Under the pieces are notes generated by a model that was not told where the DNA came from, ran no database searches, and worked only from the letters and a program-made list of their open reading frames with translations. From Alphaproteobacteria bacterium (lineage in GTDB: Bacteria; Pseudomonadota; Alphaproteobacteria; MPNO01; UBA830), in contig OZ219791.1 in the NCBI GenBank assembly GCA_964291215.2, positions 2,784,001 to 2,848,000 of the forward strand: a DNA stretch of 64,000 bases. The letters run 5' to 3'. The position numbers and the translations under genes were made by a program. Shown here in pieces: positions 20,732 to 56,061 of the stretch. Position 1 is the stretch's first letter. Each line of letters starts with the position of its first letter.

Positions 20732-20763
20732 TAGATTCGATTTCGGCGCGGGCTAGGGCGGAC

Positions 20764-24124: not shown

Positions 24125-25273
24125 TCGGTGACGACATGGAGCGATCGGGTCCTGCCGTCGACCCGGAAGCCGGTTTCGTCGACATGCAGGGCCGGGCGTT
24201 CCGGCAGCTCGGCGATGGCGGCCTGGAGTGCAGCGCGTCATGCAGGCGCCTGACGCAGGCGAGGCAGGTGGCCTCGTAGAGCCTGAGCCCGGAGACCGCC
24301 TGCACCAGCGCGACGGCGCAGGGACAGCATTTGGGCGACCGGCAGGTTGATGACGAAGGCCTGCAGACCGACGCCGTATTGCAGCGGCCCGGGCATGGTC
24401 TCGGGAAACCGCCCCCGGCAATCCGGGCATTCCTTGACCTCGGCGTCGATGCGGCGCTCGATGACCTCGAAGACGATGTCGTACGACGCTCCCGGTCGAC
24501 AGCCTCGACGCCATCGAGGCCGCAGGCCTCGACGGCGACCGTCTCCTCGACGATGGTCTTCCAGAGGTTGTCGCCCGTCTGCAGGTTCGGCTTCGGGCCC
24601 TTGCCGCTGGCGCCCTTGCGCCGCTCGTCCTTGTCCGTCTGCGACGGCGCAAGGCCGGAGTTGGCGCCGGTGGGTCGTCTTCTCCAGCAGGACGGCAATC
24701 AGGATGCTCACCAAGGTGGACAGCACGCGGATCACGTCATCGGCCTCTCCGGATATCTTGCCGGCAGCGCCGCGATCCTGGCCGCCTCGAACTCCTCGCG
24801 CAGCGACGCCGCGTCGCCCGGCGGCATCTTCCGGTACCCCGCCGCCTGGCCTTGCGCCTGATGCGCTGACGGTCCGTGCGGTTCCGTCCGACATCGCCGG
24901 CCGAGTGCATCCGCCCGGGCTCGAAGTCGAGCCACCTCGGTGCGGACCCGGGGCGTCACCTGCACGGCGATGCGGCGCCAGTCCCGCAGCAGGTCGTCGT
25001 ACAACGCCGAGGCGCGGCCCGAGACCATCGCCTGACACGGCAGCCCCTTGAGCAGTTCAAGGAGTTCGACATGGTTGGCTTCGGTGCAGTCGTGACGGTA
25101 CCGCCGCTTCGATCGGCGGGTCGCCTGCAGGGGTCGCTGCAGACCAGTTTCGTGCCCCGGAACGCAAGGCCGGCCAGGAACGCGTGGGCGCAGCCGTGGA
25201 TCAGTTCCACCGGATAATCGCACCCGAACCCGTCCAGCGATCGCCGGTCGATCCCGATCGAGCGCAAGGCCGG
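24125..25273 (-). mobile_element. IS66-family remnant: DNA methyltransferase fragment plus transposase 5' half
   Basis: PALRSIGID..YPVELIHGCAH..SDP..HVELLELL..VSG..LYD MTase fragments; EKTT..NSGLAPSQTDK, ECPDC, LHVDETGFRVDG. Confidence 0.82.
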
Positions 25274-26569
25274 GTGATGGCGACGGTCAACGCGGCGCGC
25301 GAGGAGTTCGAAGCGGCCAAGACCGCGGCGCTGCGTGCGGCCGGCAAGGTGGCGGAAGAGGCCGTCATCCGCGTCCTTGTCATCCTGCTCGACATCATCA
25401 TCGTCGTCCTTCTGGAGAAGACCACGCGCAAAACGAGCCGGAACTCCGGTCTGCCGCCGTCACAGACGGACAAGAGCGTGCCGGAAGCAACGGCAAGGGC
25501 CCGAAGCCGAACCGGCAGATGGGCGACAACCTGCGCAAGACCATCGTCGAGGAAACGGTTGCGGCCTGCGACGCCTGCGGCGCTGACATCGACGGCCCCG
25601 TCGATCGGGAGCGCCGCGTCCTCTATGACATCGTGTTCGAGGTCGTCGAGCGCCGCGCCGAGATCAAGGAATGCCCGAAGTGCAAGGGCCGGTTCCCCGA
25701 CAACATCCCGTGCAGTACGGCATCCAGGCCCTCGTCATCAACCTGCTGGTCGCCCAGATGCTATCCCTGCGCCGTCGCGTTCGTGCAGGCGATCTCCGGC
25801 ATCAAGCTCTCCGAGGCAACCTGCCTCGGCTATGCTTTCACGATGCGTCATGGGAGGAGGCCGCCGTGGCGCACCTCCTGCAACGCCCAGCCCTGCATGT
25901 CGACGAGACCGGATTTCGGATCAACAGTAAGTGGCTCCATGTCGTGGGACCCTGACGTGCAAGTTCCCGCACCGCAAGCGCGGGCAAGAGATCGGCCCGT
26001 GCTACAAGGGCGTCCTGGGCCTCGTACATGGGCCAGTGTAGCCACCAGCTGTGCGGTAGCCACCTGCTGCGCGAACTGACCTTTGTCGTCGAGGCTACCG
26101 CGCGACTGATGAAGAGCCTGCTCCGCGAGGTCTGCCACAAGGTCAACAAGAGCGCATCTAAAACCCTGAACGACGCCGGGCCGTGCGCAAGCGCTACCGC
26201 ACCATCAGGGCGCCAAGGAACTGCCCGACATTCCGCCGCCGCCGAAAGGAAAACGTGGACGCAAGTCCGACGCGCACAACCTGCACGAACGTCTCGTGAA
26301 ACACGAAAACCTGCGCTTCACAGACGACCCCAACGTCAGCTTCACCAACAATGCCGGAGAACAGAAGATCAGGATGGCAAAGGTCAAGGTGTCCGGGTGC
26401 TTCCGCTCCACGCAAAAGCATGGTGCCGGGGCTCAAGCTACCTCACCTCCATGGCCGCACTCGGCTACAACCCACTCGTCGCCACCCAGATCGCCCTCGA
26501 CGGAAAAGCCGCAGACATCATCAACGAGCACTATGGCCAATCAGAATCCAACTAGGGGTGAGTAGATAC
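25262..26569 (+). mobile_element. IS66-family (single-ORF ISBst12-like) transposase copy A, decayed
   Basis: NSGLPPSQTDK, LHVDETGFR, HQLCGSHLLREL, FTNNAGEQKIRMAKVK; right end GGGGTGAGTAGATAC; near-identical to 54069-55345. Confidence 0.92.
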
Positions 26570-26688
26570 CTGGTTTGAATGTTCATCCTCAGCCAGTTCG
26601 CGCCGCAGTGCTGGCAAAGCGCAGCCGTCCAGGCGCCGTTCCGGCAGGGTGGCCGTCCAGCGGAAGTGAACGGGTTGCCGCCGGCCGG

Positions 26689-27144
26689 TCAGTTGCGGTT
26701 CTCGTACTGTTCCAGGCCCTCGATGGCGTCGAGATTCTCGGCGCGCCCGCGAAGTTCGATGACATTGCGGTCGGGGTCCCTGACGAAAACCGAGACATGG
26801 CTTCCGCGCTCAAACATTACCGGCCCCTGGGTGATCGTGATGCCGTGCTCCTTGAGCAGCCTGATGGTGTCGGCGATCGAGGATACCCGAAGCGCGAGAT
26901 GCGTCATGCCTGCGTACTTGGTGTCGATATCCATGAGGATGTTGCTGCCGTCATGTTCGGGCGCGGCATTGACGACCAGATTGATCTCGACGTTCTGGGC
27001 GTTGCGGATGATGATCACCGGATCGAAGGTAATCCGCTTCTCAACCTTGAAGCCCAACACCTCGTAGAAGCCCAGCGCACGCTCCGCGTCCGCGACCCGG
27101 ATACCGACATGGTCGACCTGCTCGATGCCGATCGTCTCCGTCAT
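26689..27144 (-). CDS. VOC/glyoxalase family protein
   Basis: DHVGIRV..FYEVLGF..HLALRV..FVRDPDRNVIEL. Confidence 0.9.
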   Translation of the reverse strand: MTETIGIEQVDHVGIRVADAERALGFYEVLGFKVEKRITFDPVIIIRNAQNVEINLVVNAAPEHDGSNILMDIDTKYAGMTHLALRVSSIADTIRLLKEHGITITQGPVMFERGSHVSVFVRDPDRNVIELRGRAENLDAIEGLEQYENRN

Positions 27145-28796
27145 GTGTTACTCCTGTCGACCGCCGGAGCGCCGGTTCCGGCGGGCTTCAGCGTTTCGCG
27201 CCCGCGCAGAATGTCCGACATGCGTTCGGCAAACATGATTATCGGCGCGTTGATGTTTCCCCCCACCATGTCGGGGAAGACCGAGCCGTCGATAACGCGA
27301 AGGTTCTCGGCGCCCCGCACACGCAGTTCGGGATCGACAACGGCCGCTTCGTCGCTGTCCGGGCCCATCTTGCAGGTGCCGAGCGGATGATGCGCGGTCC
27401 ACGCCGTGCGCTTGATGAAATCGTCGAGCGGTTCGTCCCGCGGCTGAATTTCGCGTCCGCGGAATTTATCGAGCGCTTCCTGGCGTGCGATCTCCCTCAC
27501 TATCCCGATGCCGTCGCGGAGCGTCTGCCAGTCCTCCGGTTCGGTCAGGAAGTTCTGGTGGATCTGCATGTGATCGGCGGGGTTGGCTGATCTCAGCGTC
27601 AGTTCGCCGACGCTCTTGGGGTGCAGCAGGACTGGCCGCACCATGAAGGCGTCGTTCGGCTTGGGCCGGAGGCCGGGGAACCAGGGTTTGGATTCGGGCG
27701 GAATGAAGCGCGCGAGCAACTGGATGTCGGGTTGCGCGAGTCCGTCTTTCGAATGGATGAAACCCGTGAGCGGGCCCGGCATCTCGGTGGCGAATCCGGT
27801 GCCGAAGAAGTACGCGCGAGCCATGGCAAGCGCAATCCGGTCGTAGCGAAGAAGCCCGACGAATGGACCGTCGCCGTTGCGCTCGTATTCGACGCCGACC
27901 GAGAGGTGGTCCTGGAGGTTGCAGCCCACGCCCTTCGAGTCGATCACCGTATCGATGCCATGCGCCTTCACGCGGTTGCCGTCGCCGATCCCCGACAGCA
28001 TCAGCAGCTGCGGCGAGTTTATGACCCCGCCCGAAAGGATGACCTCGCGCTCCGCCCGCGCCACCGTCGTCCCGCGGCCTCCGGTGGAATACTCGATGCC
28101 CGTCGCCCTCGCGCCCTCGAGAATGACCCGGTGCGCCAGCGCCCGCGTCACCACGGTCAGGTTGGCGCGCTTCATCGCCGGGCGCAGATAGGCGACCGCG
28201 GCGCTGCACCGGCGGCCGTTGCGGATGGTCGACTGGAACGTGCCGAGGCCTTCGTTGGTCGCGCCGTTATAGTCGGACGTGGTTCCGTATCCGGCCGACT
28301 CGCCGGCCGCGAGCCACGCCGCCAGCAGAGGATCAGGATACTTGTTCTCTATCGTCGTCAGCGGGCCTCCGGAGCCGCGATAGTCGTCTTCACCACCTTC
28401 CCAGTCCTCCGATTTCCGGAAATACGGCAGGCACTCGTCATAGGACCAGCCCGTGCAGCCGTTCCGGCTCCAGCGGTCATAGTCCTCGCGGTGGCCGCGC
28501 ACATAGCCCATGGCGTTGATCGATGAAGAGCCGCCGAGCACCTTGCCGCGTGCGCACTCGACCTCGCGCCCGTCGAACTGGGCTTCGGGCTCCGTGAAAT
28601 AGCCCCAGTCGAACAGCCGCTCGAACAGAATCTTGCCCCAGCCGAGAGGGATCGTGATGTAGGGATGGCGGTCGCTGCCGCCGGCCTCGATGACCAGCAC
28701 CCGGGTATCCGGATCCTCGGTCAGGCGGTTGGCAAGCGTGCAGCCGGCCGAGCCGGCGCCGACGATCACGTAGTCATAGCTGTTGCCGTTGCTCAT
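27141..28796 (-). CDS. GMC oxidoreductase (choline dehydrogenase-like)
   Basis: YDYVIVGAGSAG, RGKVLGGSSSIN, NLQDH, HHPLGTCKMG, GNINAP. Confidence 0.93.
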   Translation of the reverse strand: MSNGNSYDYVIVGAGSAGCTLANRLTEDPDTRVLVIEAGGSDRHPYITIPLGWGKILFERLFDWGYFTEPEAQFDGREVECARGKVLGGSSSINAMGYVRGHREDYDRWSRNGCTGWSYDECLPYFRKSEDWEGGEDDYRGSGGPLTTIENKYPDPLLAAWLAAGESAGYGTTSDYNGATNEGLGTFQSTIRNGRRCSAAVAYLRPAMKRANLTVVTRALAHRVILEGARATGIEYSTGGRGTTVARAEREVILSGGVINSPQLLMLSGIGDGNRVKAHGIDTVIDSKGVGCNLQDHLSVGVEYERNGDGPFVGLLRYDRIALAMARAYFFGTGFATEMPGPLTGFIHSKDGLAQPDIQLLARFIPPESKPWFPGLRPKPNDAFMVRPVLLHPKSVGELTLRSANPADHMQIHQNFLTEPEDWQTLRDGIGIVREIARQEALDKFRGREIQPRDEPLDDFIKRTAWTAHHPLGTCKMGPDSDEAAVVDPELRVRGAENLRVIDGSVFPDMVGGNINAPIIMFAERMSDILRGRETLKPAGTGAPAVDRSNT

Positions 28797-28975
28797 CGCG
28801 CTCCTTCTTTCCGTGCGCCCAGGCGCCGCCATTCTGGCCGGTGCTGAGGTTGCCGTCCAGCACCGGGCCCAGGACACGGCCGCATCGCGGGCCGGCGCGT
28901 GAACCGGGATCCGGGCTCGGCCGCGAAGCCGGCTGGAAGCGGCGGCGGGCGCGGATACGGCCCGAGGGGCCGACC

Positions 28976-30316
28976 TCAGCGGCGCTGCCCCGTATCCTTG
29001 AGGCCGCGGAGCGCCTTTTCGGCAGCCTTGGTGTCGGCGATGCCGGCCTTGCGGTCGACCGGGACTGTCTCCTTCTGGCCGGCCTTCGGAAGCTTCTCGA
29101 ACGGGTAGACGGCGATCTTGTCGTTTCCTGCCGACGTGTCGCGGTCGAGGACGAGGTCCCTGGCGTTGGTCTTGCCGCTTCGCATTGCGCGGCCGTGCTT
29201 CTTCGCCGTCTCCAGGTCGAGCCACCACTTGCCGGCCACGTTGCGCCGGCCGAAGCCCATCTTGTCGTCGAGCCAGATCAGGAACCGACGTGACCAGGGG
29301 AGGCGGATCGCGGCCCACATCGCAAGCCGGTGCTGCAGCAGCCCTTCCTTGTTCCAGGGGCACATCTTCATGCACCTGCCGCAGGAGGAACCCTTGAGGT
29401 TCGTGACCCGGTACTTGGTGCATTTCTCGACATCGGGCTTCCAAGTCTCGTAGCCGTTGTAGAGCACTTTCTCCCCGTAGGGGATGGCCTGGGCAGGGCA
29501 TTCGCGGGCGCACTTCATGCACTTGGCGCAGAAGTCCTGCAGCCCGAAGTCTATCGGCTTGTCGACCGTCATCGGAAGGTTGGTCGTGATTATCGCCGTC
29601 TTGTGGCGCGGCCCGACGAACGGGTTGAGCACGAGTTCGCCGATGCGGCTCATTTCGCCGAGCCCGGCCAGCAGCATCAGCGGAATCTGCAGCACATCGC
29701 CGTCGGCGTTGGAATGCGCCTGCGCCTCGTAGCCCAGCCGGCGGATGTAGTCGGCAACGACGACCGAGATCGTCGAGCCCTTGAGATAGGCGCGGTAGCT
29801 CTGGGCACCCGAGATCCAGTCGTCGCCCGAAGACGCCTCAAGGGTCTCCCAGCGCTGGTCGACGACCACGACGATGGCGTATTTGTGCTTCGCCTCTATG
29901 GGCTCACCGTCCATGTCGTGGCTGTACCAGGCCCATTCCGGGCACTCGCAAATGCCGACGATGTCGGCATCGAGGAAGTGGCAGAGCGCCTTGATGTGCT
30001 TCGCCATCCCCTCGGGATCGGAGGGAAGTTCGGCCGGTTCCGCATAGGGATCGCCCCGGTGGGTGGGGACCTGGGTCCAGTGCACATGGCCCATCGCAGC
30101 GTTGAGCGGATTCTTGGTGATAAAGCGGCGTATCTCCTTGCCGGCCGTCGGTCCGAGGTCGCCGAAAAAGGCGCGCACGAAGAATCCGGCCCGTTTCGGA
30201 ACCCGTTCTATGCTGTCGGTGATCAGCGTCGTCGGCCGGTCGACCCGGGGGATCTTCTCCATCGGGAAGCGGCCCATGTAGAGTGGCCGTCCGCGCCGTG
30301 AGAGTATGCCCAGCAT
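28976..30316 (-). CDS. catabolic-type reductive dehalogenase (cobalamin, 2x[4Fe-4S])
   Basis: HIKALCHFLDADIVGIC..W.YS, YIRRLGYEA, AGLGEMSRIG..LNPFVGPR.K, DFCAKCMKCARECP and CGRCMKMCPWN; no Tat signal. Confidence 0.88.
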   Translation of the reverse strand: MLGILSRRGRPLYMGRFPMEKIPRVDRPTTLITDSIERVPKRAGFFVRAFFGDLGPTAGKEIRRFITKNPLNAAMGHVHWTQVPTHRGDPYAEPAELPSDPEGMAKHIKALCHFLDADIVGICECPEWAWYSHDMDGEPIEAKHKYAIVVVVDQRWETLEASSGDDWISGAQSYRAYLKGSTISVVVADYIRRLGYEAQAHSNADGDVLQIPLMLLAGLGEMSRIGELVLNPFVGPRHKTAIITTNLPMTVDKPIDFGLQDFCAKCMKCARECPAQAIPYGEKVLYNGYETWKPDVEKCTKYRVTNLKGSSCGRCMKMCPWNKEGLLQHRLAMWAAIRLPWSRRFLIWLDDKMGFGRRNVAGKWWLDLETAKKHGRAMRSGKTNARDLVLDRDTSAGNDKIAVYPFEKLPKAGQKETVPVDRKAGIADTKAAEKALRGLKDTGQRR

Positions 30317-30338
30317 TCCTGACCTCCCGGGCGCCGCT

Positions 30339-31148
30339 TCAGGGCAGGCGCACGACGGGATCGTCGCTTCGTGCGCGCCGATCGAGGAAGCGCGCGAGCG
30401 CTTCCCTGAAATAGGGATGGCCGACCGACTCCATCACGTTCTGGATCTCGAATTCCGTGGCTTCCTCGATCGACCGGCGCCAGCCCATGTGGAAACTCTC
30501 CCTGGCCATGGCCTGAAGATGGGTGGGTCCGGCCGCAAGATCTCTGGCGACCGACCAGGCATCGGCCTCGAACCGGTCGCGGCCGTAGATCCGGTTGACG
30601 ATCTGCCACTCAAGCGCTTCGCGAGCGTCAAGGGCGCGGTTGGTCAGCATCAGTTCCATGGCGCGACGGAAGCCGACGATCTTGACCAGCGAATAGCTCG
30701 TCGTGGCATCGTTGGCGAGGCCTATCGAATGCCAAGCACAGAGGAAGCGGGCATCGTCGGTGCACACCACGATGTCCGAACAGAGCGCTATGCCGAGCCC
30801 GGAGCCGGCCGCGACGCCGTTGACGGCAGAGAATACCGGTTTTCGCAACCGCACGATAAGGTGGAACACTTGGTGCCACCACATCGCCAGTTCCCGGAAG
30901 TGGGGGCTGATTCCCTCGTCAGTCGCCGGGATTTCCTTGAGGTTGAAACCCGAACAGAAGGCATCTCCAGCACCTGTGAACATCACGGCTCCGACCGTGT
31001 CGTCGGCCTCGGCCCGAAAAAGTGCGTCATGGGTTTCACGGACGCCCGCAAGATCGAGCGCGTTGGCGTATTGCGGCAGGTTGAACACCACCCTGGCAAC
31101 GCCGTCAGTCACCTCGTAGCGGATGCTGTTGTAAGTTGCAGTGTTCAA
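30339..31148 (-). CDS. fcbB: 4-chlorobenzoyl-CoA dehalogenase homologue (crotonase fold)
   Basis: Matches the remembered Pseudomonas CBS3 enzyme along its length: HFR..A.WWHQ (His90), CAWH.IG..ND..TSYSL (Trp137, Asp145), PTHLQ.MA.E.FH.GW, TEFEIQNV..SV.HP. Confidence 0.88.
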   Translation of the reverse strand: MNTATYNSIRYEVTDGVARVVFNLPQYANALDLAGVRETHDALFRAEADDTVGAVMFTGAGDAFCSGFNLKEIPATDEGISPHFRELAMWWHQVFHLIVRLRKPVFSAVNGVAAGSGLGIALCSDIVVCTDDARFLCAWHSIGLANDATTSYSLVKIVGFRRAMELMLTNRALDAREALEWQIVNRIYGRDRFEADAWSVARDLAAGPTHLQAMARESFHMGWRRSIEEATEFEIQNVMESVGHPYFREALARFLDRRARSDDPVVRLP

Positions 31149-31538
31149 GATGGGCCCCGTCTGCGGTTTCGATCATTGAGCGACGCAGGATATGGCGCAG
31201 TACCGCGTCCGTCCAGAGAGGAGATTTGGCGGCTCGCTGCTCAATCCTGCCACGAGGAGCCGTTCTCAGAAGTTCAGGAACACGGAATGATCCGCCGACG
31301 GACTTCCGGGCCGCTTCCTTCCAGGCGTCCGCAGCGCCGCCGGGTTTCCGCCGCACAGGCCGGGAGTCTGGCCGGTCCGGTCGACTCGTCGGGCCGGAGT
31401 CAGCGCGTCGGAAGCACGGGGGCTACGAGCGTCCGTCCGTCCCCCGGCTCCCCTTCTCGCCGGACAGCTGGAACGCGATGTCCGGCGGAACCCTTTCGTG
31501 GACAAGCGCCTTGCCGGCAGGCCGCGCCCCGCTGGCGG

Positions 31539-32645
31539 TCATTCAGCTGCTTCGCGGTGTCCGATCGCCGCATTGACCGCCGGCATGACCTTCTCGGCCA
31601 TCAGCTCCATCGACCGCCTGCCGAGCGCCTTGTCCTCCCAGTCCTTGCCGGCGTAAAGAAGCGTCCCGAATTCCCCGGTTACCTCACGGAACGCCAGCAG
31701 CTGGTCGATCACCGAGTTCACGTCGCCGGCGATGACGAGGCTGTCGACCACGAAGTCCAGCGTCAGCCGGTCGTCGGGGAACTCCCGCTCGGGCTTGAAC
31801 ACCTCATGGCGGTTGGCCTTCTTCAGCTTGGTGAACAGCTGCCTGTAGTAGAACCGGTAAGGGCTGCGTTCGCTGTCCCGCCCGTACTCCAGCGCTGTCG
31901 CATGATCGTCATGGACGAAGATCGAGCGGGCGATCCGCCAGTCGGCGGGATCGGCCGTGCGCCCGGCCTCGGAACAGCCCTGTGCGTAGTTGGTCCAGTG
32001 GGTCTGGACCCACTTGTCGAGGAGGAAGTTCGCCGAGATAGGGAGGAAGCCCTTGCGGCCCATCTCGATGACGCCCTTGGAGAAGGGGGCGACGACGGTG
32101 CCGAGCACGGGCGGGTGGGGCTTCTGGTAGGGCTTGGCGATCGGGCCGAGCCCGATCTCGGGAAACAGCGTCTCGCGGGTGGTGATGTTCCAGTGCTCGC
32201 CCTCGAGGTCGTAGGGCGGTTCGCCCTGCCATATGTCGAGGATGTGGCCTATGGATTCGGCGAACATCTCGTTGCGGTCGATGCCGCGGATGCCCAGCGC
32301 TTCGGCATCCGATTCGAGGGCGCCGGGGCTGACGCCGAACAGGAAACGGCCCTTCAGCAGATGATCCAGCATCGCTGCCTGGGCGGCGACCAGTACCGGG
32401 TGGGTGTGCGACAGGTTGGTGGTTCCGGTGCCGAGCTTGATCTGGCTGGTCTCGGAGATCAGGCTTGCCTGAAAGAGCATCGAGTTGGTGATGCTCTCTG
32501 CCGCGTCCGTGACGTGCTCGCCGACATAGGCCTCGGAATAGCCGAGCCGGTCGGCAAGTATGATGGCTTCGCGGTCTTCCTGCAGGACCTCCGTGTAGTC
32601 GCGATCCAGCCGATGTACCGGCATCGTGAAAAAACCAAGTTTCAT
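31539..32645 (-). CDS. LLM-class flavin-dependent monooxygenase
   Basis: MKLGFFTMPVH, AYVGEH, IKLGTG, LDHLLKGRF, PYQKPHPP. Confidence 0.9.
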   Translation of the reverse strand: MKLGFFTMPVHRLDRDYTEVLQEDREAIILADRLGYSEAYVGEHVTDAAESITNSMLFQASLISETSQIKLGTGTTNLSHTHPVLVAAQAAMLDHLLKGRFLFGVSPGALESDAEALGIRGIDRNEMFAESIGHILDIWQGEPPYDLEGEHWNITTRETLFPEIGLGPIAKPYQKPHPPVLGTVVAPFSKGVIEMGRKGFLPISANFLLDKWVQTHWTNYAQGCSEAGRTADPADWRIARSIFVHDDHATALEYGRDSERSPYRFYYRQLFTKLKKANRHEVFKPEREFPDDRLTLDFVVDSLVIAGDVNSVIDQLLAFREVTGEFGTLLYAGKDWEDKALGRRSMELMAEKVMPAVNAAIGHREAAE

Positions 32646-32812
32646 CGCTGTCTCCAAAATCCGCGTTCCGGCATGGCGCCGCACATCGGCGGCCAGTTGT
32701 CCGCAGGAAATATATATCCGACACGACCGCCCATTGCATGTCCCCTTTTCGCGCCGTTTTCAAGGCGGCCGCAGCCCGTCCGCGCGACCGGAATCCGGGC
32801 GCTGCCGCGCGG

Positions 32813-34165
32813 TCAGGCCAGCGACAGGATCACGCGAAGCCCGGGATGGTTGTCCTCAAGCCGTATCTCGCCGCCGTGGAGGTGCACCACCGCGCGCACC
32901 AGCGCCAGCCCTAGCCCGCTTCCGGGCTCGCTGCGGCTGGCGTCGAGGCGGCGGAAGCGCTCGAACACTGCCTCGCGGTTCTCCTCCGGGATTCCCGGCC
33001 CGGTGTCCCAAACGATGACGTCGCCGCGCCGCGCCGCGATGCCGATTGCGCCCGGCGCCGGCGTGTATTTGACCGCATTGTCGACGAGGTTTGTCACGGC
33101 TTGGAAGATCAGGTCGCGGTCGCCGGTGATCTCCGCCGCCGCGCTGACGTCGAGCGAGAACCCGAGCCTGTCTTCCTGCGCCAGCGGCTCGTAGAGCTCG
33201 GCGACATCGCGAACGAGCCCGCCAAGATCGACTGCACCGAAGCTCTCGCGGCGTCCGCCAGCCTCGATCCGCGCGATGCGCATGAGGGCGTTGAAGACCG
33301 CAATGAGGCCGTCGGCCTCGCCGATGGCGTCGGCTACCCGCCGCCCGCGTTCATCGCTGCTGAGTTCGCCGTCCTCAAGGCTCTCGAGGCGGCTCCTGAG
33401 GCGCGCGAGTGGTGTGCGGAGGTCGTGGGCAATGTTGTCCGATACATGGCGCAGCCCTTCCATCAACGTCTGGATTCGGTCGAGCATGTCGTTGAGATTG
33501 CCGGCGAGCTGGTCGAAATCGTCGCCGCTGCCGCGCACCGGAATGCGCTGCGCCAGGTCGCCGGTCATGATTTCGCGGCTCGTCTGGTTGATCGCCTCGA
33601 TCCTGCGGGTGGTCCCGCGGCTTAGCGCGATGCCGCCGGCGAGCGCCAGCGCCAGCGTGATCAGTACCCCCCATACCAGGGCGTCCTTGATGCTGCGCCG
33701 CGTTTGTTCGAGCTCGTGCACCTCGCGCCCGACCAGCAGCCTGAGCCCGCCGTCGAGCGCAAACGCCATCGCCCGCGCGAGATGGGGTTTGCCCTCCGGG
33801 GACTGGCGGTCGACGAGCGCAAAGGTCATCCAGCCTTCATCGTCCGGCTGGATGTCCGGCCACGAGCCGACATTGCCGACGAGTGGCCGCCCGATCGGAT
33901 CGGTAAGGAGGTACACGGTGCGGCCGCCCGGGTCGCGGCGGAGCCGGCCGGTGATGATGCGCGCTATGCCGGCCGCGCCGCCGGCCGCGTACTGTTCGTT
34001 CAGCCCCTTGATGTCGGCGCGGATGGTCTCGTCCATCTGCTCCACGAGGGTGCCGACCGTGGCTTGCCACAGGAATCCGAGGAGCACCGTCACCGAGACC
34101 GCGAACACGGCCATGTAAATCAGCGCGAGCCGGAAGGTCGAGCTCCTAAGGAGGCGCATCGCCAT
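32813..34165 (-). CDS. HAMP-domain sensor histidine kinase
   Basis: IAHDLRTPL H-box, NLVDNAVKY, DTGPGI, GSGLGL. Confidence 0.93.
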   Translation of the reverse strand: MAMRLLRSSTFRLALIYMAVFAVSVTVLLGFLWQATVGTLVEQMDETIRADIKGLNEQYAAGGAAGIARIITGRLRRDPGGRTVYLLTDPIGRPLVGNVGSWPDIQPDDEGWMTFALVDRQSPEGKPHLARAMAFALDGGLRLLVGREVHELEQTRRSIKDALVWGVLITLALALAGGIALSRGTTRRIEAINQTSREIMTGDLAQRIPVRGSGDDFDQLAGNLNDMLDRIQTLMEGLRHVSDNIAHDLRTPLARLRSRLESLEDGELSSDERGRRVADAIGEADGLIAVFNALMRIARIEAGGRRESFGAVDLGGLVRDVAELYEPLAQEDRLGFSLDVSAAAEITGDRDLIFQAVTNLVDNAVKYTPAPGAIGIAARRGDVIVWDTGPGIPEENREAVFERFRRLDASRSEPGSGLGLALVRAVVHLHGGEIRLEDNHPGLRVILSLA

Positions 34166-34835: not shown

Positions 34836-34868
34836 GGCTGTTCGGCGGTTGCAGCGGCGAAGTGGGGT

Positions 34869-39283: not shown

Positions 39284-39476
39284 CGCTTGGCCGCCGGACC
39301 CGGGCGCTTGCCGCCCGGGTCCGGCGAGTGTGATGTCCCCGGGGGCGGCCGGAATCGGGACGCGCCCCCGGGCCGATTGCGGACGGGGTTGAGGCTGCCC
39401 GCCCGCAGTCGGCCTGCGCCTCCGCGAGGGGCGTGCCGGTGCGGCAATGTGGCCTCGGGAGCTAGGAGGTGACGCG

Positions 39477-40439: not shown

Positions 40440-40471
40440 CGGCGTCCGCCGCGCCGGACACCGCTGGCCGG

Positions 40472-41437: not shown

Positions 41438-41504
41438 GGAGAGGTTCCCGCGGCCCGATGGCCGGGCCCTGTCCTGGATTTCCCGCGCCGCAGCCCGCGG
41501 GCGC

Positions 41505-41978: not shown

Positions 41979-41996
41979 GGTCTGCCCCCTGCTGTT

Positions 41997-45303
<3,307 letters not shown>

Positions 45304-45320
<17 letters not shown>

Positions 45321-46488: not shown

Positions 46489-46576
46489 TGCCGCCTTTCT
46501 CGCGTTCGGGCGCACCGTGCTGCCTTGCGGCCGCGCCCAGATGTTGTCCGCCCGCATATCGGGCGCACGGCCATGC

Positions 46577-46605
46577 TTCATAGGTCATCGCCGGATATTC
46601 GTCAA
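46577..46605 (-). promoter_or_regulatory. putative sigma70 promoter for carAB
   Basis: TTGACG-17 nt-TATGAA on the minus strand. Confidence 0.55.
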
Positions 46606-46661
46606 TAGCGATCTGTCGGGAAAGATGGGTCAAATCATATGGTTAGACATTTCCGGCAAGC

Positions 46662-46690
46662 TTGCAACGGTTCCAGAACTGCGCTATGGT
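46662..46690 (+). promoter_or_regulatory. putative sigma70 promoter for yqeY-dnaG-rpoD
   Basis: TTGCAA-17 nt-TATGGT. Confidence 0.55.
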
Positions 46691-46708
46691 GCCGCTCTTT
46701 CCTAGTGC

Positions 46709-47179
46709 ATGGTCGGATTGATGCTGCGGGACCGATTGAACGGAAAACTCAAGTCCGCGATGAAGGAAAAGGATCAGGTGGCAGTGTCGACATTGCGCCT
46801 GATTCTTGCGGCGGTCAAGGACCGCGATATTGCGAAGCGGTCTGAGGGCAGCGACAAGGGCATCGATGACGCCACCATCCTGCAGGTGCTGCAGACGCTG
46901 ATCCGCCAGCGGCGGGAATCGATCGTGCTCTACCGCCAGGGCGGGCGCGAGGAGCTTGCGGATCGTGAGGCCCGCGAGATCGCGGTGATCGAGCAGTTCC
47001 TGCCGCGCCAGCTCGATGATGGCGAGGTGGCGGACGTCATAGAGAGCGCACTCGCCGAGACCGGTGCCGGTTCCGTGAAGGACATGGGCAGGGTGATGGG
47101 TCTGCTGCGCGAGCGTTATGCCGGGCGCATGGATTTCGGCCGGGCGGGGGCTGCGCTGAAGGCGCGGCTTGCCGGCTGA
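46709..47179 (+). CDS. GatB/YqeY domain protein
   Basis: KSAMK..TLRLI..QRRES..Y..GGR..FLP.QL..DMGRVMG. Confidence 0.93.
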   Translation: MVGLMLRDRLNGKLKSAMKEKDQVAVSTLRLILAAVKDRDIAKRSEGSDKGIDDATILQVLQTLIRQRRESIVLYRQGGREELADREAREIAVIEQFLPRQLDDGEVADVIESALAETGAGSVKDMGRVMGLLRERYAGRMDFGRAGAALKARLAG

Positions 47180-47196
47180 TCGGGCGGCCCGGGCGC

Positions 47197-49017
47197 ATGG
47201 CATTCCCGCCGCAGTTTCTCGACGAGCTCCGGGCGCGGATCCGCCTGTCCGACCTGATCGGGCGCCGCGTCAAGCTGACGAAGAAGGGCCGCGAGTTCGT
47301 CGGCCTTTGCCCGTTTCACAGCGAGAAGACGCCCTCGTTCACCATCAATGACGACAAGGGATTTTTCCACTGTTTCGGCTGTGGTGCGCATGGCGACGTG
47401 ATCGGCTTCACGATGCAGGGTGCGCATCTGTCGTTTCCCGACGCGGTTGCGCAGCTGGCGGCGGAGGCCGGGCTCGAGGTGCCGGTGGCGACGCCGGAAG
47501 AGCGCGCGCGCGAGCAGCGCCGCGCCGGGCTCCTTGAGGCGATGGAGGCGGCCTGCGGGTTCTACCAGCGGATGCTGCGTTCGGCGGAAGGAGATGCGGC
47601 GCGCGCCTACCTTGCCGGCCGCGGGCTGACCGACGAAACGATCTCGCGGTTCCGCCTCGGTTTCGCCCCCGGCGGCAACCGTCTCGGTGCGGAGCTGACG
47701 AGTGCCGAGATGCCGGAATCGCTGCTCGCCGAAGCCGGCCTCGTGCGCCGGCGGGATGACGGCGGCAGCCACGATTTCTTCCGCAGCCGCGTCATCTTTC
47801 CGATTACCGACCACCGAGGCCGTGTCGTCGCCTTCGGCGGGCGCATCATCGGCGATGGCGAACCGAAATACCTGAACTCGCCGGACACGCCGCTTTTCGA
47901 CAAGCGGCGGACGCTTTATGGCCTTGCGACGGCACGCTCTGCGGCCCACGAGAGGGGCCGCGTCATCGTCACCGAAGGCTACATGGACGTGATCGCGCTC
48001 GCCCAGGCCGGGTTGACGGAGGCCGTGGCGCCGCTGGGCACGGCGCTGACCGAGAGTCATCTCCACATGCTGTGGCGCCTCGCGGCGGAGCCGGTGCTGT
48101 GCTTCGACGGCGACCACGCGGGCGCGCGCGCGGCGGTTCGCGCAGCCGAGCGCGCGCTGCCGCTGCTGGCGCCGGAGCGATCCCTGGCCTTCGTGACGCT
48201 CCCTGCCGGTGAGGATCCCGACAGCCTAGTGCGCGCGCACGGGCCGGCCGTCATCGAACGGTTGGTGGCCGGCGCGCGGACGCTTGCCGAGGTGATCTGG
48301 ACGACGCAGGTCGAAGGCCGCGACCTCGGCACACCGGAACGGCTTGCCGGCCTCGAGCAGAGACTGGACGATCTCGTGTCGTCGATAGCCGACCGCAAGG
48401 TGCAGTTCGGCTACCGTGCGCATTTCCGGAACCGGCTCCGCGACCTCACCGGCTGGCGGCGCCGGGGCGGGGGTGGTGCCGCGCCGGGAACGGGCGCCCC
48501 GTCGGCGCTGCGGCGTGGTTCCGGCAAGGCGGCGCTCGACCGCCGGCGTGAACAGGTGCTGCTGGCGACCATCATCAACCATCCGGCGGTGATCGACGAG
48601 CACGCCGAGATGCTGGCGATGGTGGAGATCGGCGATCCGGCGCGGGCAGGCCTTTTCCGCGATGCCGTGGCCGCCTGCGGGAGCGACCCGGATATTGACT
48701 CCGAGCGGCTTAAGAACCAGATCATTGAGCGTGGAAACGGAGAGGCTCTGGGCGCGCTGCTCGAGGCGGACATCTTTGTCCATGCCGCATTCGCCCGTGT
48801 CGATGCCGAACTGGATGACGCCAGGGCGGGTTTCAGGGAGGTGCTCGCGCATTCCCTGAAGCGGATGCGCGAGGAAGAGGCAAGGCTCGTGCGCGACAAT
48901 TTCGTGAACGATCCGAGCGAGGAAAACTGGCGGAAGATGGAAGCGCTTCAGGCCGAGACCGTAGCGGGACCGGACGGCATCATGTTCCCGGCGGAGCATG
49001 AACGGCAGCGTTACTGA
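47197..49017 (+). CDS. dnaG: DNA primase
   Basis: [40 protein letters not shown]. Confidence 0.97.
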
Positions 49018-49072
49018 TGCGGCGTATCACGCCCGCGGCAGAGGCCGGGCTGAATCAGGGAAACGAATAACG

Positions 49073-50968
<1,896 letters not shown>

Positions 50969-51088
50969 ATGCCGTAGGCCGCCCGGAATGCTCCAGGCAA
51001 TCTCACTCCTCCGGGCCCCTCCTGCCAGGCCGCCGGTCGGCGCATCGGTATGCGGCGCCCGGTGCCGCACGATGACAGGAGACAGAAC

Positions 51089-52558
51089 ATGACCGAGAGC
51101 CCGGCGCCGGAAGCATCGGCGCCGCAGAACGAGGGATATCTCGACCTTCGTGAGCTTGTCGCCCGATTCGAGGAGATGGGCGAGCTCGAACGAGTCGAGG
51201 GCGCGGACTGGAATCTGGAGATCGGCGCGCTGTCGGAGACGATCGCGGCCGCGGCCCCGGGGCGTGCGAAGGCATTGCTCTTCGACCGCATTCCGGGCTA
51301 CCCGGAGGGGTTCCGCATCATGTCGGGCGCGGCCAACGCCTTCCGGCGGCTGGCGCTGGTGCTTGGCCTGCCCGAGCCGGAGACCGAGATGGACCTCGTG
51401 CGCGCCTACCGGAGCCGCGCCAGGGCAGGCTTCAAGCCCATTCCGCCGGTCGAGATGGCGACGGGTCCGATTCTCGAGAATGTCGACCGGGACGAAGATG
51501 TCGACGTGCTCAAATTTCCCGCACCGTTCGTTCACGAGCTTGACGGCGGACGCTACATCGGGACCGACGACCTAGTGATCATGCGCGATCCCGATACCGG
51601 CTGGACCAATGTCGGCACCTATCGGGTAATGGTCCACGACCGCAACACGGTTGCGATCTGGATGTCGCCCGGCAAGCACGGGCGCCTTATCAGCGAGAAG
51701 TACTTTGCGAGAAACGAGCCCTGCCCGGTGCTCATATCCTGCGGTCAGGATCCCAACCTCTTCCTCGTAGCCCATCAGGAGGTGGATCACGAGCTTGACG
51801 AACTCGCCTATGCGGGCGGCCAGCGCGGCCGCGCCATCGAGGTCATCCCGAGCGAGTTGCACGGTCTGCCGATACCGGCCTATGCCGAGGTGGTTCTCGA
51901 GGGCGAGATGCTTCCGGGAGAGTTGCGCGAGGAGGGGCCCTTCGGCGAATTCATGGGCTACTACGCGTCGAACGCGTCGGAACTGCCGATCGTGCGCGTG
52001 CGGCGCGTCTACTGGAGGAACTCGCCCATCCTCACCCTGGCAATTCCGTCGCGCCCGCCGGAGAACTTCACGTTCGCGCGCGCAACCGTGAAGTCTGCAA
52101 TGATCTGGGACGAGGTGGAGAAGGCGGGTCTGCCGGGCGTCAAGGGCGTGTGGTGCCACGAATCGGGTGCCGGGCGGCTGTTCAACGTCGTCGCCATCGA
52201 GCAGCTCTATCCCGGTCACGCCTCGCAGGCGGGCATGCTGGCAGCCAGCTGCCATGCCGGCAACTATGCCGGGCGCTGGGTCGTCGTCGTCGACGACGAC
52301 ATCGATCCTTCGAATCTCTTTGACGTGACCTGGGCGATGTCAACGCGCTGCGATCCGCCCGAGGACATCCAGTACATCAAGCGATCATGGTCGACGCCGC
52401 TGGACCCGCTCCTGCGCGAGCCGCCGTGGCAAAATAACCGCGCCGTCGTCGATGCATGCAGGCCCTATGGCTGGAAGGACGAGTTTCCGAAGGTTGCCGA
52501 GGCGAGCCCGGAACTCAAGGCGTCGATCCGCCGCAAATGGCCGCAACTCTATGGGTGA
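51089..52558 (+). CDS. UbiD-family (prFMN-dependent) decarboxylase
   Basis: DGGRYIGT, NVGTYR, EGPFGEFMGYY, VVVVDDDIDP, WSTPLDP, DACRPY. Confidence 0.92.
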   Translation: MTESPAPEASAPQNEGYLDLRELVARFEEMGELERVEGADWNLEIGALSETIAAAAPGRAKALLFDRIPGYPEGFRIMSGAANAFRRLALVLGLPEPETEMDLVRAYRSRARAGFKPIPPVEMATGPILENVDRDEDVDVLKFPAPFVHELDGGRYIGTDDLVIMRDPDTGWTNVGTYRVMVHDRNTVAIWMSPGKHGRLISEKYFARNEPCPVLISCGQDPNLFLVAHQEVDHELDELAYAGGQRGRAIEVIPSELHGLPIPAYAEVVLEGEMLPGELREEGPFGEFMGYYASNASELPIVRVRRVYWRNSPILTLAIPSRPPENFTFARATVKSAMIWDEVEKAGLPGVKGVWCHESGAGRLFNVVAIEQLYPGHASQAGMLAASCHAGNYAGRWVVVVDDDIDPSNLFDVTWAMSTRCDPPEDIQYIKRSWSTPLDPLLREPPWQNNRAVVDACRPYGWKDEFPKVAEASPELKASIRRKWPQLYG

Positions 52559-52661
52559 GGTGCGCGGCGCGTACAATCCGCTTGAGGCGAGTCGCCTCGG
52601 GGTGAAATTCTCCGGGGTAACTCGACTTGAAACCCGTCGGTGGCGGTGGCAATTTGCCTGC

Positions 52662-52738
52662 GGGCCCGTAGTTCAGTTGGTCAGAACGCTCCGCTCATAA
52701 CGGAGTTGTCGGGGGTTCGAGTCCCTCCGGGCCCACCA
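52662..52738 (+). tRNA. tRNA with CAT anticodon, most likely tRNA-Ile2 (lysidine)
   Basis: GGGCCCG/CGGGCCC acceptor stem, CTCCG-CTCATAA-CGGAG, GGTTCGAGTCC, CCA. A paired 1-72 position argues against initiator tRNA; Ile2 versus Met is inferred. Confidence 0.9.
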
Positions 52739-52746
52739 TTCGACGT

Positions 52747-53286
52747 TCAGTCGAACGTGCCGTCGACGAGCACGAATATCATGTAGCAGTCGCTGTCTGT
52801 GCGGTTGCTCCAGGCATGGTTGGTGCCGCGCTGCACGCAACTGTCCCCCGCCTTCATCAGCACTTCGGAATCGTCGAGGACCAGATAGATCTCGCCCGAC
52901 AGGCAGACGGCGTAATCGACCGTTTCTGTCCGGTGCATCAGGGGATGGGGCGCCTCGCCGGCTTCAGCCGCCGCCGCCTCAGCGCCGATCGAGGCGAAGC
53001 TCTGCTTCGCCGCGTTTCGGTCGATGCTGTCGATCCAGTCCTTCTCCGGCGGAAACCTGATGATGCGGAAGACCGAGCCGTTCTGTGGCGGCAGGAGCCC
53101 GATCTGTCGGTCGGTCGTCTCTTCCGGCCCGTGAACCTTGGCCGGCGATTCGTCGAGCACCCAGAGGTTGTTGATCTCGACTCCGGGGCGGTTGGCCGGG
53201 CGGACCACGTTGATGGTCTCGCCGTCTGACACCACGATCGCCTTGCCGTTCTCGTCATGTCCGGTAACGATTCGTCTCACAGCCAT
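52747..53286 (-). CDS. cupin domain protein
   Basis: RRIVTGHD..G.A, MHRTETVDY, VQRGTNHAWSN. Confidence 0.9.
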   Translation of the reverse strand: MAVRRIVTGHDENGKAIVVSDGETINVVRPANRPGVEINNLWVLDESPAKVHGPEETTDRQIGLLPPQNGSVFRIIRFPPEKDWIDSIDRNAAKQSFASIGAEAAAAEAGEAPHPLMHRTETVDYAVCLSGEIYLVLDDSEVLMKAGDSCVQRGTNHAWSNRTDSDCYMIFVLVDGTFD

Positions 53287-53328
53287 CGCCGGTATTCCTC
53301 CCTGCAACCCCTCCTCACGCGCCGCCGA

Positions 53329-53490
53329 TCAGCGTTCTGTCGGCATGCCTCGTTCGAGATCGGTCTCGATTCCTTTTATCACCTCTCTGACGCTGCCGCA
53401 AAGCGGCAGGCTGAGCCGGAGCGCGTCGGCTTCCCTCAGGATGGTCGACATGTCCTTCTCGGCCCATGGCATCGGCCAGTTGTAGACTTC
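53329..53490 (-). pseudogene. 3' remnant of an NAD(P)-dependent (3-hydroxyisobutyrate dehydrogenase-like) oxidoreductase
   Basis: MPWAEKDM.TIL.EAD..RLSLPLCG.V.EVIKG C-terminal motif; 5' part replaced by mobile DNA. Confidence 0.5.
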
Positions 53491-53569
53491 GATTGGAGCA
53501 GCGCGTCGCGGAGTGGACCGGTCTCGACGCCGAGGCTCTTGGCCAGCCTCATGCTTTCGACGTTGGTTG

Positions 53570-53690
53570 AGATACAGGCCCAGACCACCGCGATCTACGC
53601 CCATCTTGACGATGGCGCGCTGCAGGATGCCGCCACGCAGGCCGCAGCCGTTATTACGCGCGCCATGGGATACAGGCGCCTCCAATGCCG
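53570..53690 (+). pseudogene. tyrosine recombinase C-terminal fragment
   Basis: QAQTTAIYAHLDD catalytic-Tyr region. Confidence 0.6.
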
Positions 53691-53794
53691 GACGGGGCGG
53701 AACACGGCGATGCATCGACCGACATACCTGCGCCGTCTAGGCCTGGTGCGTCGGCCTCACCGGAGGGAGAGCGATCCTCTCTCCGGGGCAGAGC

Positions 53795-56061
53795 CTTTCA
53801 ACGAACCATGATCGAGTCTTCGTTCATGAGGCGTAACTGCTCACCCCCTGGTTCCGGCTTGATGTCGGGGTAGAGCAACGAACGGGGTTCCGTGGAGATT
53901 TGACACTGCATGCCGATTCGCTTAGTGGTGGTCATCGAGAACGACGGGGACCGCCAGTGGGCTACTTTGGATCGAAGGCGACGAGCGGGCTGTGCCAGCT
54001 GCTTCCGGGGCTCCAGCCTCCGCATGATCTGTATGTGGAAACGCATTTCGGAGGCGGCGCGCTGATGAAGCGCAAGGCCGGGTGATGGCGACGGTCAACG
54101 CGGCGCGCGAGGAGTTCGAAGCGGCCAAGACCGCGGCGCTGCCGGCAAGGTGGCGGAAGAGGCCGTCATCCGCGTCCTTGTCATCCTGCTCGACATCATC
54201 ATCGTCGTCCTTCTGGAGAAGACCACGCACGAGCCGGAACTCCGGTCTGCCGCCGTCACAGACGGACAAGAGCGTGCCGGAAGCAACGGCCCGAAGCCGA
54301 ACCGGCAGATGGGCGACAACCTGCGCAAGATCATCGTCGAGGAGACGGTCGCGGCCTGCGACGCCTGCGGCGCTGACGGCCCCGTCGATCGGGAGCGCCG
54401 CACGACATCGTGTTCGAGGTCGTCGAGCGCCGCGCCGAGATCAAGGAATGCCCGAAGTGCAAGGCCCGGGGCCGGTTCCCCGACAACATCCCGTGCAGTA
54501 CGGCATCGGCATTCAGGCCCTCGTCATCAACCTGCTGGTCGCCCAGATGCTGTCCCTGCGCCGTGCCGTCGCGTTCGTGCAGGCGATCTCCGGCATCAAG
54601 CTCTCCGAGGCCTCGGCTATGCTTTCACGATGCGTCATGGGAGGAGGCCGCCGTGGCGCACCTCCTGCAACGCCCGATGTCGACGAGACCGGATTTCGGA
54701 TCAACAGCAAGTGGCTCCATGTCGTCGGGACCCTGACGTGCAAGTTCCCGCACCGCAAGCGCGGGCAAGAGATCGGCATCATCCCGTGCTACAAGGGCGT
54801 CCTGGACCTCGTACATGGGCCAGTGTAGCCACCAGCTGTGCGGCAGCCACCTGCTGCGCGAACTGACCTTTGTCGTCGAGGCTACCGCGCGACTGATGAA
54901 GAGCCTGCTCCGCGAGGTCTGCCACAAGGTCAACAAGATCGCATCCAAAACCCTGAACGACGACGTGCGCAAGCGCTACCGCACCATCAGGGCGCCAGGG
55001 AACTGCCCGACATCCCGCCGAAAGGAAAACGTGGACGCAAGTCCGACGCGCACAACCTGCACGAACGTCTCGTGAAACACGCAAACCTGCGCTTCACAGA
55101 CGACCCCAACGTCAGCTTCACCAACAATGCCGGAGAACAGAAGATCAGGATGGCAAAGGTCAAGGTGTCCGGGTGCTTCCGCTCCACGCAAAAGCATGGT
55201 GCCGGGGCTCGAGCTACCTCACCTCCATGGCCGCACTCGGCTACAACCCACTCGTCGCCACCCAGATCGCCCTCGACGGAAAAGCCGCAGACATCATCAA
55301 CGAGCACTATGGCCAATCAGAACCCAACTAGGGGTGAGTAGATACCATGAGGCCTTATATAGTAGCCCATGAGAATTGGCTTTCGACATCTGTCCACGAC
55401 GACGGTTGATTGGCTGAAGGTGGCGCCGGTTGCCGAGAGCGGCACGCCCTGGCGCAGGGATTGTGCGAACGCGAGGCGCAACGCGAAGGGCGAGCTGTGG
55501 CTTGCCGCGTGCGGCCCTGCCTGGTCTTGCCTCGGCGCTCGGCATCGTCCTTCCTGCACCAAGGCCTCGACATTGGCACCCTTGAGCGGGACTATCCCGA
55601 CAAGCCACTCGCATGTTCTCCGGAGGAGCTTGGCGAGGTCACCGTAGAGCCGGTCGGCGACGACGAGGACAAGCGCCTGGCGATGATGACGACCTGGCAT
55701 CCCGAGGCGCGCGCACCCGGATGAGCTACCGGATCACCTCGTCGTGCTACGGCCGCCTCGGCGGCCTGGTGTTCCGTGCGGCCAATTGGCATCAGAAGGC
55801 GCGCGACGACTTCTGGTCCCGGGGAGCGCGTGACGTTCACCTCGGCAAGGTCGTCAACAACGCCCGCTTGCTGATACTTCCGTCGGTGAATGTTCCGGAG
55901 CTGGCCTCCCATGTCCTGGCCTGCCGGCGGCTTGCTGCGGACTGAGAAGTGACGCCGGTTCCGGCCTACGCCTATGTGAGCCCCGAAGACACCGGCACGA
56001 GCTACAGGGCGGCAGGCCGGGAGCGTTGTGAGAAGATGACCTCGGGCCGACCTCCCGGGGC
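53795..56061 (+). mobile_element. IS4-family/DUF4338 element 1 (left part), interrupted by IS66 and by element 2
   Basis: Left end CTTTCAA at 53795. After removing the IS66, ATG MRIGFRH (55369) sits at about the same distance from the end as in element 2. WHQKARD, VVNNARLLILP.V fragments. Confidence 0.7.
53833..55345 (+). mobile_element. IS66-family element copy B with methyltransferase 5' fragment; both ends intact, 8-bp TSD
   Basis: IRs GTAACTGCTCACCCC / GGGGTGAGTAGATAC; TSD CATGAGGC at 53825-53832 and 55346-55353; GYFGSKATSG..PHDLYVETHFGGGA followed by a decayed transposase. Confidence 0.94.

Follow-up and report, generated by a model that had tools for sequence, protein, structure and literature searches.

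Why do two copies of one bacterial insertion sequence (IS) differ by nearly as many small gaps as substitutions, almost all of the gaps being of one size? The question is raised by a 64,000-nucleotide (nt) stretch of an alphaproteobacterial genome (contig OZ219791.1, positions 2,784,001 to 2,848,000; the window), which contains two copies, A and B, of an IS66 element. The original prediction counted 14 indels between them, thirteen of 5 to 7 nt (nine absent from B and four from A). It attributed these to an enzymatic ruler, a staggered cut followed by end-joining, aimed at multicopy or mobile DNA as a bacterial analogue of repeat-induced point mutation (RIP). In the fungal sexual cycle, RIP introduces new C-to-T changes into copies that have paired. 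We confirm the 5-7-nt deletions and find them throughout the genome, at far higher density in repeats. The explanation we prefer, to which we give about an even chance, is a rare motif-anchored nick and deletion followed by deletion-biased short-patch conversion between copies.

A size class of deletions and its fixed end

The blastn alignment of window positions 25261-26570 with 54069-55346 spans 1,334 columns with 17 mismatches. Of its 14 gaps, 13 measure 5-7 nt, as counted by eye. Absent from copy B are nine stretches of 7, 5, 6, 6, 7, 7, 7, 5 and 6 nt, and from copy A stretches of 6, 6, 5 and 6 nt plus a single 1-nt gap. The probability of 13 of 14 gaps falling at 5-7 nt is about 1e-14 if sizes follow a power law with an exponent of 1.8, which is our choice.

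The genome of the window (G000; contigs C1 and C2) is 6.15 Mb in length with 64% G+C, is 99% complete in two contigs and contains a two-piece transfer-messenger RNA. We compare it with a sister genome of the same genus (G001; 93-94% identical), a second species of the genus (G002; about 78% identical) and two complete genomes (G003 and G004). A sponge metagenome run contains a relative ~94% identical to G000, which is a habitat hint only. Repeats, detected genome-wide by a k-mer approach, make up 1.98 Mb (32%) of G000 in 328 pieces, and the 70 largest were examined. Copies A and B belong to a family (F1) with 178 right ends and 119 end-to-end copies, 81 of which have 8-base-pair (bp) target duplications. 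We assign F1 to IS66; the PF03050 match in the window scores under the curated cut-off, and an intact relative is present in G001.

Of 1,129 distinct clean indels between repeats in G000, 679 are 5-7 nt long. The genome-wide size distribution is not smooth; sizes of 1 to 9 nt occur 178, 44, 26, 9, 160, 341, 178, 45 and 27 times, with the peak set between 9 indels at 4 nt and 45 at 8 nt, and the peak is visible in most of the 70 largest pieces. Three sequencing runs contain the deletions, which speaks against an assembly artefact. In the Logan contigs of these runs (X1-X3) the summed depth of the 5-7-nt gap forms reaches thousands; the runs come from three samples of a single study, and one of these may be the source sample. 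No RNA run is listed among those that carry them.

After 3 of the end-to-end F1 copies were dropped by length and 4 as chimeric, 112 were analysed. Compared with the union of long alleles, each carries a mean of 31.8 deletions and 27.5 substitutions, with weighted deletion sizes of 379 (5 nt), 1,210 (6 nt) and 937 (7 nt). Because this union aligns with intact IS66 transposase over residues 11-475, where copies A and B fragment, we take the long alleles as ancestral and the gaps as deletions. A G001 IS segment is free of the gaps found in 11 G000 copies (0 per kb in G001 vs 14.5 in G000). Hardly any 5-7-nt deletions fall in the first 140 and last 130 nt of F1, as expected either if these ends are needed in cis or if conversion weakens towards the borders of homology. 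Two IS66 transposase copies (C2:2409050-2410476 and C1:1352081-1353495) have apparently one frameshift each and are possible helpers that mobilised the deleted F1 copies.

The affected families in G000 are IS66, IS256, IS30, IS630, IS1634 and IS4-like; IS256 and IS66 are named from Pfam, and the names otherwise rest partly on motifs that we take to be diagnostic. Reverse-transcriptase elements also carry the peak. About six fibronectin-III host paralogues are affected with the reading frame kept, and the deletion process may diversify these host-facing proteins. One gene (C2:1441246-1447452), from a family of about 6-11 copies, encodes a fibronectin-III repeat protein of 2,068 amino acids (aa) with many in-frame 6-nt indels. 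A TrwC relaxase pseudogene (C2:1199726-1205653) is shredded by 5-13-nt deletions, and its paralogue (C1:2234106-2237510) has no such deletions relative to the same G001 gene. Family F7, with 12 near-identical copies (C1:141535-143810 and 11 more), is an IS66 element with a passenger DNA methyltransferase-like gene, as is also seen at loci L003 and L002. The F7 copies have fixed 5-9-nt gaps in the transposase and none in the methyltransferase gene; the passenger is intact in 10 G000 copies with a broken transposase, which suggests that it may be retained. Family F8 (IS4-like; L308 and others) is mostly inserted within IS256 (F2) copies at a GC-homopolymer site of copy-variable run length.

Single-copy DNA, which the original prediction expected to lack the peak, has it too. 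The comparison with G001 took 1.05 Mb of roughly 5 Mb and aligned 797 kb outside repeats, in which 85 stretches of 5-7 nt are absent from G000 and 6 from G001. Divided by gene calls from a simple codon model, coding DNA has 19 six-nt events in G000 (0 in G001), 1 of five nt and 0 of seven, and events of 5 and 7 nt are purged from it. The 155 kb of non-coding DNA contain 65 events, a density of about 0.4 per kb; assuming an even split of divergence, this amounts to 0.009 per substitution. The density in F1-F4 is 11-16 per kb, and single-copy DNA is 25-40-fold lower. Microhomology of at least 3 nt is found at 39 of the 85 single-copy events. The idea that the process is aimed at multicopy or mobile DNA survives as a strong concentration that rises with copy number, but not as an exclusive target.

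A search for the signature in related genomes finds it in G002, sampled at 37 loci (559 kb of 6.1 Mb). There 105 of 128 distinct repeat indels are of 5-7 nt (45, 50 and 10 of 5, 6 and 7 nt) and 0 of 8 nt. G004 has 0 of 5 indels at 5-7 nt in 87 kb of aligned repeats, and the peak is not seen in G003 in only 7 kb. Copies in outside genomes, including G030, are near-identical and hence uninformative on the indel spectrum. Both signature-bearing genomes are the largest in the genus.

The G002 deletions share a motif at one end. With no fitting, 71 of 104 deleted stretches lacking microhomology have AT at an end (4 at both), in all three sizes. End-hits number 75 vs 7 expected. When 174 events are oriented, positions 1-3 are A (75%), T (83%) and C (65%). 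The motif score is 2.8 vs 1.0 for the control in G002 and 1.36 vs 0.9 in G000, where a weaker motif (GTC 17 and ATC 18 vs 6 and 7 expected in 180 events without microhomology) has about 1 nt of play. In G002 the fixed end lies 5' of (C)ATC; in G000 it lies, more loosely, 5' of [G/A]TC or [G/A]CC. Read on the opposite strand, this corresponds to a cut 3' of GAT/GAY. The other end varies by about 1 nt. The short direct microhomologies at which the deletions were predicted to sit are enriched in G000 but not required there (none in 180 and 1 nt in 173 of 679 events), and in G002 they are at chance level (none in 61 of 105). Coding-strand bias is absent in G002 (46 vs 48), and the G000 transcription-strand counts of 39 vs 70 come from a weak, possibly codon-biased matrix. 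There is no excess of hairpins or palindromes at deletion sites.

The sharp 5-7-nt window and the motif-fixed end in G002 bear out an enzyme-like ruler. One defined and one variable end suggest that a single strand is cut and a short patch then lost. The predicted staggered cut with end-joining is not supported; the one-ended motif fits a single-strand nick better, and Ku and ATP-dependent ligase were found in 0 of the 5 genomes G000-G004.

Probable spread among copies and competing explanations

All F1 haplotypes (112/112) are distinct in deletion pattern, and four-gamete tests fail for deletions and single-nucleotide polymorphisms (SNPs) alike. Linkage is lost within 15-30 nt, and at 5-15 nt r2 is 0.05 between deletions and SNPs vs 0.18 between SNPs. 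From the other families we used 44 of 59 (F2), 40 of 43 (F3) and 10 of 11 (F5) copies. Common deletions lie above half frequency in 19 of 39 cases in F1, 10 of 21 in F2, 11 of 22 in F3 and 12 of 18 in F4; pooled, 52 of 100 exceed 50% frequency vs about 22% under neutrality (P 1e-10). The C-to-T/G-to-A share is equal in common and singleton substitutions, so common substitutions are not skewed like the deletions. Under a strict filter, private 5-7-nt deletions number 5 per 3,179 private substitutions and common ones 255 per 1,568 common substitutions. The gap-to-substitution ratio rises about ninefold as copy number goes from about 2 to >50 (0.027, 0.039, 0.058, 0.115, 0.125, 0.140 and 0.232). 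The scarcity of private deletions, the abundance of common ones and the rise with copy number together suggest that new deletions arise near the single-copy rate and are then amplified.

The explanation that we prefer would proceed in two steps. First, a nickase would cut a single strand at a short motif, with the loss of some six bases; given the observed size and motif, we infer a nick, a short gap and resealing without fill-in. This initiating event would be rare, roughly 0.002-0.05 per substitution. In the second step, copies swap patches of tens of bases, as the mosaic haplotypes show. MutS misses loops of at least 5 nt, and MutS and MutL are intact in G000; a heteroduplex loop of that size would evade MutS and probably be resolved to the short strand, giving the bias. 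Each deletion would then sweep its family, and high-copy IS, group II introns and host paralogues would decay jointly.

Several points weigh against nicking followed by biased conversion. F5 is without frequency skew (3/14), and the neutral expectation assumes an equilibrium that is violated by the singleton excess. The strict private filter is harsher on indels than on substitutions, and a looser count over half to two thirds of the length gives 10, 2, 1 and 1 singletons vs 102, 105, 107 and 85 substitutions. F8, with only 14 copies, has a median of 9 gaps per 13 substitutions (91 pairs), and some pairs have 10-14 gaps with 1-6 substitutions per 2 kb. Within-genome drive over 14 F8 copies cannot yield such a load from an input of 0.01 unless the family was formerly larger or copies were exchanged between cells. 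The weak linkage of deletions to SNPs also fits repeated hits at the same site, and young target duplications combined with old internal diversity also fit shuffling before insertion. The direction of conversion is suggested here by frequencies, not by observed single events. The G000 motif is not seen in single-copy events (0.46 vs 0.37 for the control, n=45); these are also richer in microhomology and may partly be the product of another process. The enzyme is at the candidate stage only.

The alternative that survives best, although we consider it unlikely, is a dedicated defence resembling RIP. Pairing of copies would trigger nicking at the motif, the same site would be deleted again and again at a length fixed by its context, and the frequency of a deletion would reflect the susceptibility of its site. 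Such a defence would account for the difference in density between IS (11-16 per kb) and non-coding single-copy DNA (0.4 per kb), for damage that scales with copy number, for F8 gaps that rival substitutions and for deletions uncoupled from adjacent SNPs. In one lightly deleted G002 copy 5 of 8 CATC sites are deleted, deletion counts per copy are overdispersed, and a defence-type nickase cluster, sspABCD, is common to both affected genomes. However, private deletions are scarce, and nearly every site has one length allele (two sizes at one end in 1 case in 4 G002 loci). The site motif score predicts deletion frequency only weakly (rho 0.19, P 0.12, n=65), SNPs are shuffled too, so conversion is real, and single-copy genes are hit. 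What stands of the predicted RIP analogue is a similar outcome and the denser damage in repeats; most deletions are shared variants shuffled among copies, and per-copy targeting of the RIP kind is at most a possibility.

Rather unlikely, in our estimate, is a variant in which homology amplifies the damage directly: a nickase, possibly the shared SspABCD subtype, would delete ~6 bases from (C)ATC in the single-stranded DNA of paired repeats and so both create deletions and convert long alleles to short ones.

We consider it improbable that the pattern is the relic of a past burst of mass transposition, in which IS intermediates, free or replicating, underwent nicking, shortening and recombination ahead of their insertion, with the residents near static since. 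The young F1 target duplications (81 perfect and 3 with one mismatch among 119) and the ~2 private substitutions per copy speak for it, as do an internal pairwise divergence of about 2.6% with few close sisters (nearest neighbour median of 12 differences) and the fixed deletions common to the 12 near-identical F7 copies. A burst has to contend with hits in the chemically unlike families IS66, IS256, IS30, IS630, IS1634 and IS4-like, and also in reverse-transcriptase elements, the relaxase pseudogene and fibronectin-III paralogues, and alone it leaves the high-frequency skew unexplained.

Ordinary replication slippage is very improbable. Here MutS would clear loops of up to 4 nt, codon periodicity would favour 6 nt and selection would be relaxed in dead elements; the microhomology excess in G000, the intact mismatch repair and an excess of 3n deletions published for symbiont pseudogenes (PMC6054270) are in keeping with this. 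The cliff above 7 nt is not (45, 50, 10 and 0 for 5, 6, 7 and 8 nt in G002), 3 and 9 nt are not elevated, and G001 and G004 have MutS but no peak. G002 combines no microhomology excess with a fixed AT end, and by this end motif slippage is largely refuted there.

An assembly or sequencing artefact has a negligible chance and is refuted in practice: the three runs that fully carry the gap forms all belong to one study and are represented by contigs only, but the depth in the thousands, the selection for frame in coding DNA (19 events of six nt, 1 of five and 0 of seven), the second species with a different motif and the complete genomes G003 and G004 without the signature speak against it.

Candidate enzymes

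Argonaute and Ku/LigD, suggested earlier as co-occurring genes, do not turn up. Argonaute/Piwi, like Ku, was not found in 5 of 5 genomes, and Cas1 is present in all five. NucS was not found in G000 and has weak hits only in G002, TopIB was not found in the genus (31 genomes), and genes for EndoV and the Y1 transposase were not found in G000. Searches for MutS, MutL, RNase HII, TopA, ExoVII, PolA, DnaG and the IS91 Y2 transposase give no explanatory pattern across G000-G004, and the core repair genes are intact whether or not a genome is affected. Reverse transcriptase is decayed in G000 and G002 and has long open frames in G001. Residues common to G000 and G002 number three in six repair proteins, about chance level by a rough estimate.

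The 110 G000 spacers of clustered regularly interspaced short palindromic repeats (CRISPR), compared with the IS, have only 16-25-nt partial genome matches. One CRISPR locus (L084, C1:574247-591435) has Cas3, GSU0053/GSU0054 genes, a Cas4-Cas1 fusion and 95 spacers. Another (L085, C2:2063990-2069543) is of the Cas9 kind and has 15 spacers, each 30 nt long.

Other candidates were rejected. An unfilled DnaG primer gap does not fit a deletion start of AT rather than two purines, and the primase specificity strand is identical in 5 of 5 genomes; in replichore sense, 16 of 29 deletions are on one, with low power. A footprint of aborted transposition does not fit target duplications of 8, 3 and 9-10 nt, with 6 nt only in the small F5, which has a TA-rich centre. 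An altered TopA acting as a deletion mutator is not consistent with the R35P spectrum, which is 1-nt dominated, and none of the five genomes has a change in what we take to be the motifs containing R35 and R168.

G000 encodes an intact sspA-sspBCD cluster (C1:876313-882858; PADLOC), and its SspB matches PDB 6JUF. A syntenic counterpart in G002 (SspB 53%, SspC 53-58%, SspD 76%) has its sspC split at a 16-C run. SspB is present in 3 of 26 family genomes, with the close subtype only in G000 and G002 and a distant form in G001. Phosphorothioation is varied in the genus (L271, L272 and L306), with dndBCD in G004, a DndC-like cluster plus Ssp in G002 and the distant Ssp in G001. Modification by Ssp systems is confined to one strand, which they may also nick (PMC12707154). 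The shared SspABCD subtype is a weak lead to the cause of the deletions, and we think it quite unlikely to be the answer. The match was made post hoc, after about 17 families, on 2 positives. The known product, CpsC, counts against it, as do the split sspC of G002 and the fact that no genomes of the genus are larger than the two affected ones. Few deletion ends lie at the Ssp consensus CCA: for CC|A, 10 among 104 events in G002 where 3 are expected, and 9 among 180 in G000 where 5 are expected.

Window features and known systems

Repeated elements of the window and single-copy sites of 6- or 7-nt absence (window positions; C2 coordinates in brackets)
Feature	Position	Strand	Description
IS66 copy A (F1)	25261..26569	+	left end absent; transposase disrupted by many 5-7-nt deletions
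IS66 copy B (F1)	53833..55345	+	full length, 8-bp target duplication; transposase broken; remnant passenger gene that we take to be a Dam-like methyltransferase
Diverged relative of F1 IS66	24131..24834	-	72-75% identical, gapped too
IS256/Mutator-family remnant (F2) and extra terminal piece	14780..16237		about 75 genome-wide matches; 5.2 5-7-nt gaps per kb
Repeated element without family assignment	19539..21590		53 matches; 7.1 5-7-nt gaps per kb
DruA-domain transposon remnant(s)	55367..57908		7.0 5-7-nt gaps per kb vs 6 copies
Repeated element without family assignment	58302..59605		18 matches; 4.9 5-7-nt gaps per kb
Single-copy DNA	approx. 39297..39298 (C2:2823297)		7-nt stretch in G001, absent in G000
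Single-copy DNA	approx. 51068..51069 (C2:2835068)		6-nt stretch in G001, absent in G000
Single-copy gene	approx. 61920..61921 (C2:2845920)		6-nt stretch in G001, absent in G000

The window also contains a defence-like island (16956-24049), interrupted by repeats, with genes for a ParA-type ATPase, a Schlafen/AlbA-ATPase protein and an SNF2 helicase, the last with HmaA as its best PADLOC match. An open frame of 962 aa (30306-33194) is without Pfam or PADLOC match and may be a shadow frame.

The signature resembles RIP in outcome and fails the test of sparing single-copy DNA. As in RIP, a short sequence is preferred and the damage falls far more heavily on repeated mobile DNA than on DNA present once. 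Unlike in RIP, each lesion removes 5-7 nt, single-copy DNA does not escape, and most lesions are common to several copies and shuffled among them. No precedent for such deletions was found in the open literature, a scope outside which most subscription journals lie.

Partial likenesses come from systems whose reports were available in part, and the following comparisons hold for those parts. Deletion-biased nonallelic gene conversion in Drosophila and primates, with a bias of about 3.5-fold (PMC3280953), likewise lets paralogues exchange and shrink cooperatively; that system is eukaryotic, with no narrow size window or end motif in the account, whereas here the host is a bacterium, the window is 5-7 nt and the patches are tens of bases long. 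Wolbachia is also a symbiont-type genome full of dead, recombining IS copies, but a size ruler and motif are without mention in that text (PMC3205602). Pseudogenes of Ca. Burkholderia have Ku/LigD-independent short deletions, partly at microhomologies, and bacterial indel spectra are described there as power laws dominated by 1-nt events (PMC6054270). The spectrum in that work, with repeats masked, is a power law with a mild excess at 3, 6, 9 and 12 nt, whereas here 5 and 7 nt are as prominent and 2-4 nt nearly absent. E. coli topA R35P resembles our case in enzyme-linked short deletions outside repeats, with hotspots, and differs in that the mutator is 1-nt dominated (PMC6954433). SspABCD, with its SspB nickase, offers single-strand chemistry at a short motif and possible nicking (PMC12707154, PMC12914056), and the ssp cluster occurs in both G000 and G002. 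Its known product is CpsC rather than an AT-anchored site, deletion activity is not described in the sections of those two papers at hand, and G001 has a distant subtype without the signature.

That two species have a motif-anchored 5-7-nt ruler points to a DNA-processing reaction not yet known. Copy-number-dependent deletion sweeps would be a route by which IS-bloated genomes, such as this one with 32% repeats, disable mobile DNA and, if true, an undescribed way for bacteria to wreck it where it is repeated. If a nickase acting on paired repeats both creates the deletions and converts long alleles to short, bacteria would have their first functional counterpart of RIP, one that works by deletion and scales with copy number. 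The question of whether bacteria have an analogue of RIP becomes directly testable.

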